NCBI GenBank assembly: GCA_001776505.1
Contig: MFBV01000032.1
Location: forward strand, 1 to 53,558
Source of the DNA: Candidatus Curtissbacteria bacterium RIFCSPLOWO2_02_FULL_40_11
Lineage (GTDB): Bacteria > Patescibacteriota > Microgenomatia > Curtissbacterales > GWA2-41-24
Length of the DNA stretch: 53,558 bases
Direction of reading: 5' to 3'
Shown: piece by piece, positions 6,880 to 34,061 of the stretch
How positions within the stretch are numbered: the first letter of the stretch is position 1
Layout of the letters: each line of letters begins with the position of its first letter
The notes under the pieces: generated by a model
The model's input: only the letters and a program-made list of their open reading frames with translations
Databases searched by the model: none
What the model was told of the DNA's origin: nothing
Translations under genes and position numbers: made by a program

Positions 6880-9057
6880 ATGGCTATAGCCGATATTGTT
6901 GGCCGATTTATAAAAAAAGAGTCTGAAGAAGAAAACAACTTTCTTTCTCTCTCGTTAACTCCCGACAGGGTCCTGGCTACTATTTGGGCACTTGAAGGAG
7001 AAAAGGTTGAAGTTTTAGGATTTTCAAGAAAATCTTTTCAAAACATTGATAGCATTATTCACCAATCAGCTATAGCGATAGATGCTGCTGCCGAGAAGGC
7101 AAAAAGCGACGTTTCGCAAGTTGTGTTTGGTCTTTCTAGCAGTTGGTTTGACGATGGGAAAATTAAAAAAGACGCAATAAAACTTTTAAAAAAACTTTCT
7201 CAAGAGCTCGAGCTAGACTCCCAAGCATTTGTACCGCTAGCATCATCTATTAAAAACTATTTGAAATATGAAGAAGGAGTTACACCTCATGCTGTATTAA
7301 TTGGAGCTTTTAATGATTCTTCTGAGGTCCATTTACTTAAAAACAACGAGGTCGAAAAGACGCTAGAATCAAGGAGCAAACCTACTTTCGAAAAAATATC
7401 AGAGTTAGTTAAACAATTAGGAGATGAAAAAGATCTTCCGCTAAAAATAATTGTTTTTGGTATCCCAGATGATTCCCGGTTAGCAGAAGAGATACAGAAA
7501 CACGAGTGGAGTGGTACTTTTATTCACAAACCGAAAGTCGAGTTTTTAAAAAATAGGGATGTTTCAAAATCTGTTGCTTTTGCGCAAGCAACAGATTTTT
7601 TAGGCCACGAATTGTCTCAGGCGCCAACGGCTACAGCTCCAATTGTTAAACTTGGCGATATTGCCGAGAAAAAATTATCTTCAGAGACTGGCGAACTTGG
7701 ATTTATAGAAGACGAGGATATCCTCAAGAAAAATGAAGAGACGCAACCAGCAGAGAAGGAAACTACTCATCACGAAACACAGGAAGACCTAGCGGTCGAA
7801 GTTGACCAAAATGTTAAACAAGCAGAACCTACTGCAGTAATGCATGAGTCACCTAAAAAAGAAAAGGGGAGTCTCATTGAAAATATTGCAACGTTGGGTT
7901 GGTTCTCTAAATTAACAAATATTTTTAAAGGTCCGGGGGTCGCTAAAAAGTTAGGTATGGGTATTGCTATACTTATGGTTTTGGGGTTAGTGGGGGTGTT
8001 TATGGCAGGTAGAACACTCACTAGTGCAGAAGTAGTAATCAAAGTCAATGCGCAGTCTCAAGAGGAAAGTTTCGATGTAAATGTAATTAAAGGAGCATCA
8101 TCAGATTTTTCAAAACAACAAATTGGCGGACAAGAAATAATAGGCGCGGCTACTGGGAGTCGCAAAGCGGTAGCTACTGGAACTAAAGAACTGGGTGAAC
8201 CGGCCAAGGGCGAAGTAACTATTTTCAATTGGACAACATCAGAGACAACTTTTTCTCCAGGGACAGTTATTATTTCAAAAAACGGTATTAAGTTTGAACT
8301 AGATGGAGATATTTCTGTAGCTTCACGAAGTGCTTCGACCCCAGGAGAATCCAATATAGCTGTTATTGCAGTCGACTTCGGATCTGAAGGCAACGTGGGT
8401 GCAGGAACAGATTTTACGTTCCAAGAATTCGATGAGCTTCTTTACTCCGGAACTAATGAGAATTCATTTTCAGGTGGAGATGAAAAAGAAGTGACCGTTG
8501 TTTCACAAGAAGATTTGGATAAATTAGAAGAATCTTTGCTTGAGACCCTAGAGGAAAATGCAATTTCTAACCTTAAAGAAAAACTGGCCGGTAAAACATT
8601 TTCCGAAAGTAGCATAGATATCGAAGTAACCAAACGAGTTTTTGACCATGAAGTTGATAAAGAGGCGTCTCTTGTGAACCTCGATATGGGAGTTGAAGCA
8701 ACAGCCATAGCATATAGCGACGATGATCTTAAAAAATTGCTTGCAGAAAATGTTAAGGAAGATGCACCCCAAAACCTAGAGGCAAAAGCAGACGACATCA
8801 GATTATTAAGCGTTGATGCCGCAATTACATCTAGGGGTTTAAATCTCACAGGAAATTTTGAAGCAAAATTTGTACCTAAATTCGAAGAAAATGATCTTAA
8901 AGAAAAAATTGCTGGCAAAAGTGTGAAGAAAACACGCGAAATAATTAAAAGTCTACCAGAAGTTTCTGATGTCAGCGTAAACTTCTCACCGAGTTTTTTC
9001 TTTGCAAGTACGTTACCGATTAACAAAGAGAAAATTACATTTAAGGTCGAAACGTAG
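6880..9057 (+). CDS. large membrane protein, cytoplasmic N-terminal domain plus mid TM plus extracellular beta-rich domain
   Basis: 725-aa ORF with TM LGMGIAILMVLGLVGVFMAG near residue 350; C-terminal half resembles baseplate-J-like beta-rich proteins (weak recollection only). Confidence 0.55.
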   Translation: MAIADIVGRFIKKESEEENNFLSLSLTPDRVLATIWALEGEKVEVLGFSRKSFQNIDSIIHQSAIAIDAAAEKAKSDVSQVVFGLSSSWFDDGKIKKDAIKLLKKLSQELELDSQAFVPLASSIKNYLKYEEGVTPHAVLIGAFNDSSEVHLLKNNEVEKTLESRSKPTFEKISELVKQLGDEKDLPLKIIVFGIPDDSRLAEEIQKHEWSGTFIHKPKVEFLKNRDVSKSVAFAQATDFLGHELSQAPTATAPIVKLGDIAEKKLSSETGELGFIEDEDILKKNEETQPAEKETTHHETQEDLAVEVDQNVKQAEPTAVMHESPKKEKGSLIENIATLGWFSKLTNIFKGPGVAKKLGMGIAILMVLGLVGVFMAGRTLTSAEVVIKVNAQSQEESFDVNVIKGASSDFSKQQIGGQEIIGAATGSRKAVATGTKELGEPAKGEVTIFNWTTSETTFSPGTVIISKNGIKFELDGDISVASRSASTPGESNIAVIAVDFGSEGNVGAGTDFTFQEFDELLYSGTNENSFSGGDEKEVTVVSQEDLDKLEESLLETLEENAISNLKEKLAGKTFSESSIDIEVTKRVFDHEVDKEASLVNLDMGVEATAIAYSDDDLKKLLAENVKEDAPQNLEAKADDIRLLSVDAAITSRGLNLTGNFEAKFVPKFEENDLKEKIAGKSVKKTREIIKSLPEVSDVSVNFSPSFFFASTLPINKEKITFKVET

Positions 9058-9061
9058 AGAG

Positions 9062-9793
9062 ATGTCACTGGAAATTTATTCCAAGGATCCCCCCATTAGT
9101 TACAACTCTGAAATAAAAAGCAGAGATAGATACTTTTTTGCTCTGATTTCGATTATTGGCTTAGGAGCAGTTTTATTCGCAACTTGGCCTTTTTTCGTTT
9201 GGCAAATGAGTACTCTTCCAAGGCTTTCTGGCGGGTTCGATGATGCTCCTATTCCCCAAGCAAGAGTGCTTTCCGCAAAAAGCCCCAATTTAGAAAATAT
9301 TCAAGTAGTTCAAGATGCCGATGGGTTCTCTTATTTTATCCCCACAAATTTATCAGAGAATGATCCGAATGATGAGAACCGTTCTAAAGAATTTTCAGTT
9401 TCTATTCCTAAACTCAATATTAATAATGCTATTGCAAAAGTTGATAGTCTCGATTTTCGCAAAAACCTATCTCATTTTCCAGGAACAGCTCTCCCCGGAG
9501 AAGTCGGCAACTCTTTCATTACCGGCCATTCGGTACTGCCCCAATTTAGCGATCCGGAAAACTACAATGCAATTTTCACCAAGCTCTCCGATTTAGAAAT
9601 TGGTGACAAGGTTAATGTGGCAAGAGACGGAAAACAATATCAGTACATAGTCCAATACTCAAAAGTCGTAAACCCAAAAGATCTTTCGGTGTTAGCACCG
9701 ATTAGCGAAAATGCCAAAAACCTGACTCTTATGACCTGCGTACCACCCGGCACAAATATCAAGCGATTGGTTGTCATCACGAGTTTAATATAA
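9062..9793 (+). CDS. sortase family transpeptidase (ATG 9062 preferred over the track start 9002)
   Basis: N-terminal TM, catalytic His context FITGHSVL, TLxTC motif LTLMTCVPPG, downstream conserved Arg (KRLVV). Confidence 0.85.
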   Translation: MSLEIYSKDPPISYNSEIKSRDRYFFALISIIGLGAVLFATWPFFVWQMSTLPRLSGGFDDAPIPQARVLSAKSPNLENIQVVQDADGFSYFIPTNLSENDPNDENRSKEFSVSIPKLNINNAIAKVDSLDFRKNLSHFPGTALPGEVGNSFITGHSVLPQFSDPENYNAIFTKLSDLEIGDKVNVARDGKQYQYIVQYSKVVNPKDLSVLAPISENAKNLTLMTCVPPGTNIKRLVVITSLI

Positions 9794-9818
9794 TGCGTTT
9801 TCATAAATTTAATGCAAT

Positions 9819-9852
9819 TTGACAAATTTAATGTAAAATGTTAAATTTAATA
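9819..9852 (+). promoter_or_regulatory. promoter TTGACA-N17-TAAATT of the toxin-antitoxin operon, overlapped by AAATTTAAT direct repeats
   Basis: -35 at 9819-9824 and -10 at 9842-9847; ATG at 9854 gives a leaderless or near-leaderless mRNA; AAATTTAAT at 9805, 9824 and 9843 (19-bp phasing). Confidence 0.55.
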
Positions 9853-9853
9853 C

Positions 9854-10186
9854 ATGCATTTTGCAAGTGTTACTTCCCAAGGTCAGGTTAGCATTCCCGC
9901 TAAAATAAGAAAAAAGTTAAAATTGGATAAAAGAAAAAGGGTCATTATAACCGAGGAAAACGGCAAGATTCTTATGGAGCCAATAAAAGACATTTTAGAA
10001 TTAGCTGGTTCTCTCAAAGCCCCTAAAAATATTAAGGCTTATCAAGGCAGGGAAGCATTTGAAAATTATTTGGCACACCGCGCAAACAAGGGTATATCCA
10101 AAAAAGCTCTCAAACAACTTGGATTCCAAGAAACATCGCCTCATATTTTTACCCCGCCAAAGACAAAATCTGCCCAAAGTAAATAA
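9854..10186 (+). CDS. AbrB/MazE/SpoVT-family antitoxin
   Basis: N-terminal swapped-hairpin signature VTSQGQVSIPAKIRKKLKL; 1-nt overlap (TAATG) with the downstream PIN gene. Confidence 0.85.
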   Translation: MHFASVTSQGQVSIPAKIRKKLKLDKRKRVIITEENGKILMEPIKDILELAGSLKAPKNIKAYQGREAFENYLAHRANKGISKKALKQLGFQETSPHIFTPPKTKSAQSK

Positions 10187-10575
10187 TGGCGCAGATTATA
10201 ATCGATACGAATATTTTACTAAGATATATCCTGCGTGACATAGAAGGTCAATATTTGATATCCAAAAAGTTTTTTACCCAAGCAAAGTTAAAAAACATCC
10301 AATTAATAGTACCGCAAATAGTCATCTTCGAAATAGTTTTCAATTTGAATAAATTTTACGATTTCGACAAGGAGCAAATAATTAAAACGATCGAAGATCT
10401 ACTCTCTACCAACTATTTGAACGTAGAGGATTGGGAGATTTTCAATATGGCCGTTGGTATTTATGAAAATAATTCTATAGACTTTGTAGATTGTTTCATC
10501 ATCGCAAAGGCGCAAATTTCTGGAGCAAAAATTTTTAGCTTCGATAAGGATTTCAAAAAACTTACAAAAACCTAA
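10186..10575 (+). CDS. vapC: PIN-domain toxin (VapC-like ribonuclease)
   Basis: IIIDTNILLRY (Asp 1), FEIVF (Glu), DFVDCFIIA, FSFDKDFKKL, all typical PIN acidic positions. Confidence 0.85.
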   Translation: MAQIIIDTNILLRYILRDIEGQYLISKKFFTQAKLKNIQLIVPQIVIFEIVFNLNKFYDFDKEQIIKTIEDLLSTNYLNVEDWEIFNMAVGIYENNSIDFVDCFIIAKAQISGAKIFSFDKDFKKLTKT

Positions 10576-10644
10576 CTCTCATGACCTGCGTCCCCCCCCG
10601 GAACCAATATCAAGCGGTTAGTTGTAATAACTAGCTTAATATGG
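10565..10644 (+). pseudogene. ghost copy of the sortase 3' end (last 25 codons), frameshifted in a C8 tract and with the stop lost
   Basis: Aligns to 9715-9793; after removing one C it encodes KNLTLMTCVPPGTNIKRLVVITSLI, identical to the live C-terminus; 12 synonymous and 0 nonsynonymous differences. Confidence 0.9.
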
Positions 10645-10688
10645 GTTACGGTTTCCATGTGCATAATCATGTCCGAAAATCGCCCAAT

Positions 10689-10730: not shown

Positions 10731-11507
10731 ATGACCCACGAAGTACCTCAAGGTAACGAAAGTCCCAGACGTGTTCTCGAAGAAATTCTTGCTAACAAGA
10801 GAAAAGAGATTGCTCTAAGGTATCCGGAAAAACCTAGCAGTTTTATAGAAATGTTTAGAGATGCCGATTGGCCCGTCGTAATTGCAGAGATAAAACCAAA
10901 ATCTCCTTCAGCAGGTAAACTAATTGATGAAAACCCCGTCAATTTAGTACAAAAATTTCAGCAAGGAGGAGCAGGAGCTATTTCAGTTCTTACGGATAAA
11001 AAATATTTTGGAGGTAGTCCTGAATTATTTTTGCAAATTCGCGAAGCGACAAAATTACCGATGCTTTGGAAAGATTTTGTCATTAGCGCAGATCAGCTAG
11101 TAGATGCCCAACAAAGGGGAGCCGACGCAGTGCTTTTAATAGTTACAGCCTTAAGGAGACAAAATGTAGATTTGAAAGCAATGATTAACTTTTCAAAAGC
11201 TCTTGGTCTTACACCTGTGGTGGAAGTCCATGACAATCGGGAAAGAGCTGAAGCTCTTATGGCTGGAGCAAATATCATTGGTGTAAATTCGCGCAATTTA
11301 GATACTTTGCAAGAGAATCCTTTTCTGGCTTTAGAAGTTTTGAGCCAGATACCGAGTGGTCGAATAGCGTTACTTTTTTCCAGCATTAAATCAAGGGAAG
11401 ATGTTGAGAAAGCAAGACAAGCTGGAGCAAAAGGTGTTTTGGTAGGGACGTCAATTTTAAAAGCTCCTGACCCAGTTGAAAAGTTAAGAGAGCTGACTTC
11501 AAGTTGA
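10731..11507 (+). CDS. trpC: indole-3-glycerol phosphate synthase
   Basis: VIAEIKPKSPSAG, ISVLTDKKYFGGS, GVNSRNL motifs; TIM-barrel size (258 aa). Confidence 0.88.
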   Translation: MTHEVPQGNESPRRVLEEILANKRKEIALRYPEKPSSFIEMFRDADWPVVIAEIKPKSPSAGKLIDENPVNLVQKFQQGGAGAISVLTDKKYFGGSPELFLQIREATKLPMLWKDFVISADQLVDAQQRGADAVLLIVTALRRQNVDLKAMINFSKALGLTPVVEVHDNRERAEALMAGANIIGVNSRNLDTLQENPFLALEVLSQIPSGRIALLFSSIKSREDVEKARQAGAKGVLVGTSILKAPDPVEKLRELTSS

Positions 11508-11563: not shown

Positions 11564-12490
11564 TTATAAACCCCTATATGTTGTTCTGAAGTTCTTTAGT
11601 GCAACAAGTAGATATTGTTGATCAGAAGCAAACCATTTTTTCATAGTAGCTACTGCGTTTCTAATGTCTTCAAATTGATTACCATTTTCCTTAGCACTAC
11701 TCCAGTCTACGAGGCTAACCTTATTTGTTTTAGGGTCAATTAATAAATGCCTTCTGTCAAATCTATCAAGGTATGCCAGATCTAAGAAATGGGTTTTTCG
11801 AAGTGCCACACCAAAAGCAGCTCCAACAATATCTGGGTGTTCAATTGCTAATTCTTCAGCAGCTATACCACCTATAAATTTCTCTACAATCCAATTATTA
11901 TTACTTTCAATAACTTCTGGTCCAACAATTCCGGCAACTTTTTTAGCAATACTTTCTTCTCCATCATGTAATGTTCTCTTAATTACGACGCCAGATTCTT
12001 CGTCAATAATAACTGCAACTAAACCTCTTTCATCGCCATAATCCAACAAAGTCATCGGCGGCTTTTCTTCTTTTGCTTTTAATCTCTTGGCAAGTTCAGG
12101 AACACTCTCAATTATGTTATGAGCAGAATTCCATAAGTGAATGTTAAAAGCCAAAGTTACACTTGGCACAACGTATTCCCAAAGAGGTTTTAAATCAAAT
12201 TCAATCCTCAACTTTTCTGCTAACGGTGGAAACCAGCGAAGAATTTCTATAGAAGGCTCTGTAAGTGATAATACCAAGGGATAGTGCTGGTGATATTCTT
12301 GTCTATCCATCGCAAATAAAGCCACCTTTGTTTGATAAAAAACATTTTTTAAAGTTACAGGTTGTCCTGTTTCTTTGCATTTATTTACCGCATCTTGGAA
12401 TAAATCCAGCAAAAATTCCGGATCTTCATCTAATACTTCAGGATTTTCATTATATATATCTGCATATGTAAGTTGTTCACCAGTAGCCAT
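11564..12490 (-). CDS. orphan protein, C-terminal half possibly an atypical kinase-like fold
   Basis: 308-aa ORF on the opposite strand between the two ruvX repeat copies; VVIKRT (VAIK-like), HFLDLAYLDRFDRRHLLID and SLVDWSSA loosely resemble Kdo/RIO/APH-type catalytic and metal-binding loops. Confidence 0.5.
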   Translation of the reverse strand: MATGEQLTYADIYNENPEVLDEDPEFLLDLFQDAVNKCKETGQPVTLKNVFYQTKVALFAMDRQEYHQHYPLVLSLTEPSIEILRWFPPLAEKLRIEFDLKPLWEYVVPSVTLAFNIHLWNSAHNIIESVPELAKRLKAKEEKPPMTLLDYGDERGLVAVIIDEESGVVIKRTLHDGEESIAKKVAGIVGPEVIESNNNWIVEKFIGGIAAEELAIEHPDIVGAAFGVALRKTHFLDLAYLDRFDRRHLLIDPKTNKVSLVDWSSAKENGNQFEDIRNAVATMKKWFASDQQYLLVALKNFRTTYRGL

Positions 12491-12525: not shown

Positions 12526-12577
12526 TTGACAAAAAGTTAATCCTCATCAACAATATCCTCATGATTCTTGGAATTGA
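12526..12577 (+). repeat. live copy of the ruvX promoter/5' end repeat
   Basis: TTGACA at 12526-12531; ATG of ruvX at 12561. Confidence 0.9.
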
Positions 12578-12944
12578 TTTAGGTCAAAAAACAACAGGCC
12601 TTGCAATATCCGAAGGCGAACTAGCAACTTCTCACTCAACTATTACTCACAAATCTTTAACAGAAGCAGTTTCAAAAGTAATTTTGTTTTGTGATCAAAA
12701 CCAGGTGGATACAGTGATAATTGGCTACGTTGAGGGTAAAAATAAAATCTATTTTGAAAAGTTTCGTGAGATGTTAGAAAATAAAAACTCTAATCTAAAA
12801 ACTGTAATGTGGGACGAAACCCTAACAACTAGACAAGCAATATCTATAATGGTTAAACTCGGTGTGCCAAGACAGAAGCGACGCGAAAAAGAACACGAAG
12901 TGGCAGCCAGTTTAATTTTACAAAGTTATTTAGACAGTAAATGA
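12561..12944 (+). CDS. ruvX: YqgF/RuvX putative pre-16S rRNA nuclease / Holliday junction resolvase-like protein
   Basis: MILGIDLGQKTTGLAIS N-terminus, DETLTT motif, about 127 aa. Confidence 0.85.
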   Translation: MILGIDLGQKTTGLAISEGELATSHSTITHKSLTEAVSKVILFCDQNQVDTVIIGYVEGKNKIYFEKFREMLENKNSNLKTVMWDETLTTRQAISIMVKLGVPRQKRREKEHEVAASLILQSYLDSK

Positions 12945-28884: not shown

Positions 28885-28920
28885 AAGAATTTTGAATTTT
28901 GCACTTTAAATTAACTAATT

Positions 28921-33656: not shown

Positions 33657-34061
33657 ATGCTTACACCAAGAAGAGCTAAGTATAGAAAACAATTTAGAAA
33701 TAAAAGAAGGGGTCTCGCGCTCCGCGGCAATAGCATATCTTTCGGGACAATTGGTCTCAAAAGCCAAGGAGTTGGTTGGGTAAGTGCTAGGCAGATCGAA
33801 GCTGCACGAAGAGCTATGACTCACTATACAAAAAGAGGTGGTAGGATCTGGATTCGTATTTTTCCAGACAAACCTGTGACCAAAAAACCTGCTGAAACTA
33901 GAATGGGGTCAGGTAAAGGTGATGTTGATCATTATGTAGCAGTTGTCAAACCCGGAGCCATTCTTTTTGAAATGGGATCCGTTGAAGAAAAAATAGCTAG
34001 AGAAGCGATGAGGCTCGCTGCGCACAAATTGCCAGTAAAAACAAAAATAATTTCAAGATGA
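33657..34061 (+). CDS. rplP: 50S ribosomal protein L16
   Basis: [33 protein letters not shown]. Confidence 0.98.

Follow-up and report, generated by a model that had tools for sequence, protein, structure and literature searches.

The window analysed here, a stretch of 53,558 nucleotides, comes from a 0.94 Mb metagenome-assembled genome (MAG) of Candidatus Curtissbacteria, a member of the Candidate Phyla Radiation (CPR). It contains a sortase gene whose 3′ end occurs twice, on either side of a small toxin-antitoxin (TA) cassette encoding an AbrB-type antitoxin and a PIN-domain toxin. The upstream copy of the repeated segment completes the sortase gene and is called the live copy; the downstream copy overlaps the end of the toxin gene and is referred to as the ghost. 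Coordinates without a contig or locus number are those of the window (Table 1); G-numbers denote genomes (G000 being the source genome), L-numbers loci or contigs of relatives, and C-numbers contigs of G000.

Orthologs of the sortase were found in all of the relatives (41/41). In addition to the Pfam match given in Table 1, its product matches the NCBIfam model sortase_fam with 59.5 bits, which exceeds the cut-off, and the relatives carry the name class E sortase. The two copies of its 3′ end (live 9708-9791, ghost 10558-10642) align as a direct repeat of about 85 nt with 81% identity and a spacing of 850 nt, the sole such pair for this sequence in a search of the 0.94 Mb genome. The 25 duplicated codons (KNLTLMTCVPPGTNIKRLVVITSLI) include both the cysteine of the TLxTC motif and the conserved arginine downstream of it (..KR..). 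An earlier, sequence-only reading of the window had described the recurrence of segment 9715-9793 at 10565-10644, overlapping the PIN stop codon, with 12 synonymous changes, an extra C and TGG in place of the stop, and had placed the TLxTC motif inside it; all of these features were reproduced, and the conserved arginine lies there as well.

Exactly 12 substitutions separate the two sets of 25 codons, and all of them (12/12) are at codon position 3 and synonymous (12/12). With about 25% of random single changes in this segment being synonymous, the probability of such an outcome by chance is approximately 7e-8 (p^12), and in a simulation of 12 changes in 25 codons the peptide was kept in 0 of 200,000 sets. 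The longest identical run between the two copies is 11 nt. As every difference is synonymous, the two sortase ends are best regarded as alleles of different lineages, and not as products of a duplication in situ; local duplication followed by drift should have given about 75% non-synonymous changes, against the 0 of 12 observed. The sequence-only reading had proposed that the end of an essential enzyme was replaced by an allelic version: the codon pattern upholds the allelic part, but essentiality had been assumed, and a second sortase paralogue exists.

The ghost carries a run of eight C residues where seven would hold the frame, and TGG at the position of the sortase stop codon. It is predicted not to be translated in the sortase frame, and its interpretation as a translated small open reading frame (ORF) was rejected, the sole ATG-initiated ORF being 17 residues long and out of frame. 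The ancestral sortase stop is more likely to have been TGA than TAA, since relatives without the cassette end in ...TTAATT-TGA, with the TGA lying within the -35 hexamer TTGACA of the downstream ruvX gene. The TGG of the ghost is then probably one step from TGA, or the junction of a later trpC insertion, so that one change would suffice instead of two.

The insert of about 770 bp consists of the antitoxin and PIN genes alone, without any mobility gene. Besides its AbrB/SpoVT domain match to PF04014 (33.6 bits, cut-off 24.7), the antitoxin matches TIGR01439 (32.2 bits, cut-off 28.3). The two genes are co-oriented with the antitoxin first, and the antitoxin stop and the PIN start codon ATG overlap by 1 nt. 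Acidic residues of the PIN protein are found at D7, E49, D102 and D120 in the contexts IIDTN, IFEI, FVDCF and SFDKD, their catalytic assignment being made by inspection. By comparison with a ghost-less allele (L071, ending in ...KLAKSRL*), the final two codons and the stop codon of the PIN gene come from the ghost: the stop TAA (10573-10575) is made by the leucine codon CTA of the ghost, which in the live copy is CTG and gives no stop.

A promoter scan identified a -35 box TTGACA (9819-9824) and an extended -10 box TAAATT (9842-9847) upstream of the antitoxin gene (10/12 matches, with TG). The antitoxin ATG follows 6 nt past the -10 box, and the TA mRNA is probably leaderless. The promoter sequence is near-identical in G002, G023, L071, L072 and L075, even though the encoded proteins are just 32-76% identical. 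Family membership makes it probable that the cassette serves addiction or defence and is autoregulated, with a leaderless mRNA: the antitoxin would bind the 19-nt-phased repeats of the operator, and RNase activity would be expected of the PIN protein. The order of antitoxin and toxin, their 1-nt overlap, the four acidic residues of the PIN domain and the direct repeats at the promoter are all shared with type II VapBC systems that have an AbrB/SpoVT-fold antitoxin. Unlike a typical VapBC pair, the cassette has a long antitoxin (110 residues), an apparently leaderless mRNA, and a predicted toxin whose end derives from a foreign gene fragment.

A Xer/dif-like site in the promoter (AATGTTAAAT, compared with E. 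coli dif) was considered and rejected, as the flanking repeats are direct coding repeats and not inverted XerC/XerD sites, and the motif belongs to the 19-nt operator repeats. Two AAATTTAATG motifs also occur elsewhere in the genome (C26:11333-11366; L002 1500-1540), just 5′ of the gene for a small RNA-binding protein that is RRM-like by sequence; AAATTTAATG is possibly a regulatory motif common to the TA operator and this gene.

The source sequence is metagenome-assembled, and G000-like and G023-like populations co-occur in one sample (3300025323), a situation in which two strains could be mis-joined, as the sequence-only reading had considered. However, the exact sortase protein is encoded on contigs of three further Joint Genome Institute (JGI) samples, which match the window at 99.98-100% nucleotide identity across 3.3-8.8 kb. 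These three independent assemblies span both repeat copies, trpC and the orphan gene orf308, and the same architecture is present in assemblies from other studies and in other genomes. The structure is therefore no mis-join or assembly artefact, and this explanation, like that of a drifted local tandem duplication, is effectively refuted. The ghost beside the TA cassette is a genuine and reproducible recombination scar in an uncultured CPR bacterium.

The sortase-ruvX junction in relatives

In six genomes of the family, in L069/L070 and in L076, the sortase gene leads straight into ruvX. These empty sites are all from other species; the closest available relative is L076, with a sortase 80% identical to that of G000. 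In several of the empty-site loci, including L076 (955-1000), L006 and L016, the sortase stop TGA is inside the ruvX -35 box TTGACA. The comparison indicates that the ancestral state was a sortase gene abutting ruvX, and with the stop codon within the -35 hexamer, any insertion there must replace either the gene end or the promoter. The analysis supports the earlier proposal that the sortase 3′ end received a TA cassette. The junction appears to be an insertion hot spot of Candidatus Curtissbacteria: elsewhere it contains a MazE/MazF pair (G001, same genus), other genes with a HicA toxin gene (L068), or two TA pairs (G002).

The layout of sortase, AbrB, PIN and ghost was found in five other sequences (G002, G023, L054, L072 and L073), all with a common PIN tail ...FDKDFKKLxKT* that reads into AAAACYTAACTCTYATGACC. 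The junction ...KKLxKT*/AAAACYTAA is common to all these ghost-bearing loci. Their ghosts are damaged in different ways. In G002, from the same genus, the ghost is cut after 31 nt; in G023, from another genus and with a sortase 62% identical, it has a 1-nt deletion; and in L073 it has just an in-frame 6-nt deletion and otherwise reads TCVPPGTNTKRLVVVTSLL*. Scans with the junction and promoter patterns, covering the order, all metagenome contigs and the species-representative genomes, returned the three known genomes and one new contig, L054.

Two further loci carry a cassette of this family at the site, but with other right junctions. In L071 about 20 nt of ghost are left behind the PIN end, and in L075 a heavily decayed ghost of about 90 nt, ending in ...RLVVISLI-TGA, is joined to the ruvX -35 box. 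Since the L075 ghost stands in the native ruvX context, it is the displaced original end at that locus.

Comparison of the ghosts and toxins suggests that the cassette has been exchanged between lineages. Between the ghosts of G000, G023 and L073, and between each of them and its live partner, nearly all differences are synonymous, and the three ghosts correspond to distinct valid sortase C-termini. Each must therefore have belonged to a working gene until recently, as a single ancient ghost inherited vertically would have decayed. The PIN proteins fall into a clade A (G000, G002, L072 and L073, with 67-76% mutual identity) and a clade B (G023 and L054), with just 31-38% identity between the clades, and the junction occurs in both. 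It does not occur in L074 and L075, which are nearer to clade A than clade B is (55-60% identity), nor in L071. Near-identical between the two clades are the last ~40 nt of the PIN gene with the start of the ghost, and a promoter/operator of about 55 nt. The contig L054 (1-700) and the G023 locus (L007 2465-3165) are only about 75% identical inside the cassette, but their identity rises to 100% about 55 nt before the PIN stop and stays there across the ghost and the next gene; this sharp breakpoint shows an allele swap and points to recombination within the conserved end. In G023 the live copy and the ghost agree at every position over their first 32-35 nt and then diverge, as would be expected if a two-armed donor recombined with overlapping crossovers, thereby duplicating recipient sequence.

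Some other loci show related but less regular arrangements. On the 920-nt metagenome contig L072 (positions 1-100), 54 nt from the start of ruvX (MILGVDLGQITIGLAISK) run directly into the last ~30 nt of a sortase gene. This fusion is just 5′ of the TA promoter, and behind the PIN gene there is another sortase ghost; nesting of this kind suggests that recombination took place repeatedly. The sortase ortholog of G012 (C11:6643-7330) matches in two pieces in different frames, and may be frameshifted or mis-assembled. Public record CAYMGH010000030.1 (L057, the G002 locus) is labelled 'uncultured Gammaproteobacteria bacterium', whereas its genes are Curtissbacteria-like, with a sortase 79% identical and the same synteny. 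In G018 (L026 260-3375), four copies of a dispersed repeat of about 95 nt lie between homologous AbrB/PIN genes and further TA genes. Direct repeats around the homologous TA cassettes of G018 and G012 were rejected as target duplications: those of G018 are this many-copy Curtissbacteria repeat (four copies in 3.4 kb), and those of G012 are terminator-like GC hairpins.

Direct repeats around other cassettes of the genome

A self-comparison of G000 yielded 37 local direct repeats versus 6 inverted ones (35-400 nt long and 200-6000 nt apart). In at least six other cases, TA cassettes of unrelated families lie between diverged duplicates, 39-127 nt long, of a neighbouring gene's 5′ or 3′ end (Table 1). 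For most of the subset of pairs that was checked, one member of the pair overlaps an end, 5′ or 3′, of the neighbour (ychF, comM-like, DUF2723-like and others). Five of the 11 PIN loci are located within direct-repeat spans, which cover 6.4% of the genome (p~4e-4, a rough value as two of the loci share one span). Because the cargo families, the target genes, the gene ends and the repeat lengths all vary, a recombination process of the host would fit this pattern better than a single attachment site.

Table 1. Features of the sortase-ruvX region of the window, and cassettes between direct repeats on other contigs (C) of the source genome
Feature	Position	Strand	Description
Live sortase gene	9062..9793	+	243 aa from ATG 9062; core gene of the family; PF04203 82.9 bits
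Live duplicated segment	9715..9793	+	final 25 codons and TAA stop; includes TLMTC cysteine and KR arginine
TA promoter/operator	9787..9854	+	three 19-nt-phased AAATTTAATG repeats (repeat search), the first overlapping the sortase stop
Antitoxin gene, 110 aa	9854..10186	+	AbrB/SpoVT (MazE-type) N-terminal DNA-binding domain
PIN-domain (VapC-type) toxin gene, 129 aa	10186..10575	+	PF01850 61.5 bits (cut-off 23.6)
Ghost of sortase 3′ end	10565..10644	+	same 25 codons with 12 synonymous changes, one extra C, TGG for the stop
Solitary trpC (indole-3-glycerol-phosphate synthase)	10731..11507	+	PF00218 193 bits; between sortase ghost and ruvX ghost
Ghost of ruvX promoter and first 6 codons	11504..11555	+	48/52 identical to 12526-12577; both copies promoter-like in scan
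Orphan 308-aa gene (orf308)	11564..12490	-	duplicated ruvX 5′ ends on either side
Live ruvX promoter and gene	12526..12944	+	TIGR00250 RuvX 50.4 bits; directly 3′ of sortase in relatives
RHH/ParE-like cassette	C14:28902-29663		repeats at 28902/29597
Two TA pairs (double cassette)	C14:33877-35731		repeats at 33877/35606
BrnA/BrnT cassette	C23:7543-8375		repeats at 7543/8303
RHH/PIN_3 cassette	C33:7740-8539		
Gp49/HTH cassette	C38:5525-6560		duplicated ychF promoter and about 25 codons
DUF5674 pair	C32:68416-69158		repeats at 68416/69107
Phd/RelE-like cassette (assigned by sequence alone)	C1:31407-33442		
Further small cassette	C45:17511-19419		between direct repeats

Proposed origin and spread of the cassette

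We propose that the cassette was probably acquired by homology-anchored recombination, as an insertion with long target duplication that displaced the sortase terminus, and that its alleles were subsequently exchanged through the conserved ends. The insertion most likely arose by homology-facilitated illegitimate recombination in the course of natural transformation. Incoming DNA of a related lineage, with its own sortase end followed by the cassette, would have been anchored by pairing within the resident sortase gene, and an illegitimate joint would have formed at the other side, 5′ of the end of the resident gene. A candidate for this joint is the sequence GCAAAA, found in the PIN end of L071 (...GCA AAA TCA AGA CTT TAA) and in the sortase gene (GGC AAA AAC), which may have served as a 6-nt microhomology. 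Two copies of the last ~26 codons would result, one of which completes a working gene, while the ghost behind the PIN gene is left untranslated and decaying. Intergenic spacers in this genome are about 30 nt, and the sortase stop codon and the promoter overlap; a joint can spare both neighbours only if it duplicates the gene end, and survivors would therefore carry ghosts.

In a second step, the unit would have sortase-like flanks on both sides, so that RecA-dependent recombination could move the cassette behind other sortase genes, each time with a fresh ghost made from the recipient's end. The conserved promoter and PIN end would likewise let divergent TA alleles swap in place. The genome encodes ComEC (158 bits), DprA (258 bits) and RecA (437 bits), all above their cut-offs. 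Further circumstances in favour of the proposal are that G000-like and G023-like populations occur together in one sample, and that no recombinase gene is linked to the cassette at any locus examined.

The proposed event has counterparts in several known systems. Insertion with long target duplication is reported for restriction-modification (RM) units (Nobusato et al. 2000 Gene 259:99), and it has been described for such addiction-type modules in Helicobacter pylori, Haemophilus influenzae and others (Furuta, Abe and Kobayashi 2010, PMC2853133). The criteria used in that work are an insert of less than 20 kb with a module and no mobility gene, a direct target duplication of more than 30 bp, and a related empty site with one copy (PMC2853133). 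At the sortase locus the insert is about 770 bp and devoid of mobility genes, the duplication is about 80-85 nt, and relatives have empty sites. Other properties in common with the RM insertions are a small module of the post-segregational-killing type, a duplication that overlaps the 3′ end of the neighbour, and allelic substitution of modules at one locus (PMC2853133). Unlike in those cases, the cargo is a type II TA pair, so that breakage of DNA by the cargo cannot be invoked, and the host is a CPR bacterium; moreover, the repeats are diverged alleles (81% identical, with synonymous differences only) instead of near-identical copies, and the junction is common across genera.

Homology-facilitated illegitimate recombination itself is known from naturally transformable bacteria, as far as the studies concerned are cited in PMC5361080 (de Vries and Wackernagel 2002; Prudhomme et al. 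2002; Meier and Wackernagel 2003). The one-sided anchor in the sortase gene, the putative microhomology joint and the encoded ComEC, DprA and RecA would all agree with such a process, to judge from the genome. The later spread, in contrast, seems two-sided, with the ghost as second arm.

Orphan 3′ regions are reported at rhs and contact-dependent inhibition (CDI) loci, among others (Jackson 2009; Poole 2011; Koskiniemi 2014). C-terminal displacement leaving such orphans has been documented at rhs/CDI loci and at effector-immunity loci of type VI secretion systems (T6SS), with homology-facilitated illegitimate recombination as the proposed mechanism (Kirchberger 2017, PMC5361080). There too the incoming module supplies a new 3′ end together with linked small genes, the old end is kept downstream as an untranslated orphan, and serial events stack the orphans. 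The sortase locus differs in that both ends encode the same peptide, being alleles and not toxin tips, and in that the linked genes form a self-contained TA pair and do not confer immunity against the displaced end.

Several points weigh against the proposed origin. The movement of the cassette has been deduced from assembled sequences, and natural transformation in these organisms from the presence of genes. Homologous recombination through an arm of about 80 nt at about 80% identity is inefficient in model bacteria. GCAAAA is short and could be a coincidence, and an internal deletion between the PIN gene and an older ghost could give the same joint. Similarity with relatives gives no clue as to which of the two G000 copies is native: the ghost matches L076 in 60 and the live copy in 61 of 75 nt, both are also similarly close to G001, G002 and L077, and a sliding-window comparison along the sortase gene gave no breakpoint. 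The genome-wide repeat counts include paralogous neighbour genes and a dispersed repeat family, which makes the enrichment statistic rough. Finally, a site-specific recombinase that acts in trans could also account for the junction shared between genera and for the roughly 32-35 nt of perfect identity in G023.

This last point leads to an alternative that we consider unlikely, in which the cassette is a non-autonomous integrative element resembling an integron cassette or a cis-mobilizable element (CIME), with the sortase end as attachment site, the live end and the ghost as attL and attR, and the recombinase encoded elsewhere. Integrative elements and CIMEs are known to reside at the 3′ ends of protein genes and to provide a substitute end, as do ICESt1 and its CIME at fda in Streptococcus thermophilus, and e14 at icd in E. 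coli; as in those cases, the direct repeat at the sortase locus is the 3′ end of a gene, the gene stays intact, and a small cassette without integrase lies between the repeats. An identical PIN/ghost junction in two genera and on divergent TA alleles, the identical first 32-35 nt of the two G023 copies, cassette ends that are conserved around a variable interior, and the four tyrosine recombinases and one serine recombinase encoded in the genome would be in line with such an element. However, these five genes are all on other contigs, and an examination of about ten sortase-linked loci, the main test of this alternative, found no recombinase gene within the cassette or beside it, nor was an integrase-bearing relative found. 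A fixed identical core would be expected, but the longest identical run is 11 nt in G000, as against about 32-35 nt in G023, and the right junctions of L071 and L075 are different although cassette family and site are the same. One attachment site also does not explain how unrelated TA families and an orphan gene came to be flanked by 39-127 nt of the 5′ or 3′ ends of many genes.

The sequence-only reading had favoured another explanation, namely that the arrangement serves to stabilise the cassette, the ghost being kept defective so that loss of the cassette ruins the sortase. As far as the arithmetic goes, its prediction of a hybrid, possibly frameshifted sortase is correct, as deletion between the repeats would yield either a 240-aa frameshifted protein without the conserved arginine or a 265-aa protein with a tail of 22 residues; the ghosts of G023 and G002 are disabled too. 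As a dedicated device selected for this purpose it is nevertheless very improbable. The lesions differ per genome (one additional C in G000, a 1-nt deletion in G023, a 31-nt remnant in G002, an in-frame 6-nt deletion in L073, near-complete decay in L075 and L071), and with such varied lesions and an almost intact L073 ghost the pattern is that of neutral decay and not of design. The same architecture surrounds cargo other than TA genes, such as orf308, as well as other TA families at the ends of other genes; a TA module by itself already penalises its loss; and the essentiality of the sortase, which has a paralogue, was an assumption. The cost of precise loss would act as a ratchet that is a by-product of ghost decay.

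The proposed insertion with displacement of the sortase terminus would extend long target duplication, a phenomenon that is described yet poorly understood, from RM units to type II TA modules and to the Patescibacteria. The wider pattern, with several TA families beside duplicated core-gene ends in one genome of 0.94 Mb and one junction on very divergent toxin alleles in two genera, suggests a route by which tightly packed, recombinase-poor genomes can gain and shuffle defence or addiction genes while their neighbours remain unbroken. For annotation, ghosts of this kind are to be expected and should not be called pseudogenes of separate genes. The synonymous-only signature can be used as a marker to date and trace gene gain by recombination in MAGs, albeit with modest practical consequences.

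A broader and considerably more speculative idea is put forward tentatively. TA cassettes and small accessory genes in streamlined CPR genomes might behave as recombinase-free mobile cassettes that carry conserved ends of core genes as guiding arms, and are targeted by RecA to orthologous junctions across species and genera. Here the arms would be the active-site end of the sortase on both sides of the cassette, together with the conserved promoter and PIN tail, and each transfer would make a fresh ghost and shuffle divergent toxin alleles. If true, arm-guided spread would be a main route of accessory-gene gain in the CPR, with conserved catalytic motifs as landing pads.

Neighbouring genes of the region

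In G000 the sortase ghost and ruvX are further separated by two other genes. The solitary trpC gene has no homologue in the other 31 family genomes, where it was sought beside the sortase as a possible sortase-trpC-ruvX precursor, and it is therefore likely to be recently acquired accessory cargo of the hot spot. The product of orf308, encoded on the opposite strand, has no Pfam or NCBIfam match. Lying between a ghost and a live copy of the ruvX 5′ end, orf308 appears to be a second insertion with ghost architecture, in this case at the 5′ end of a gene.

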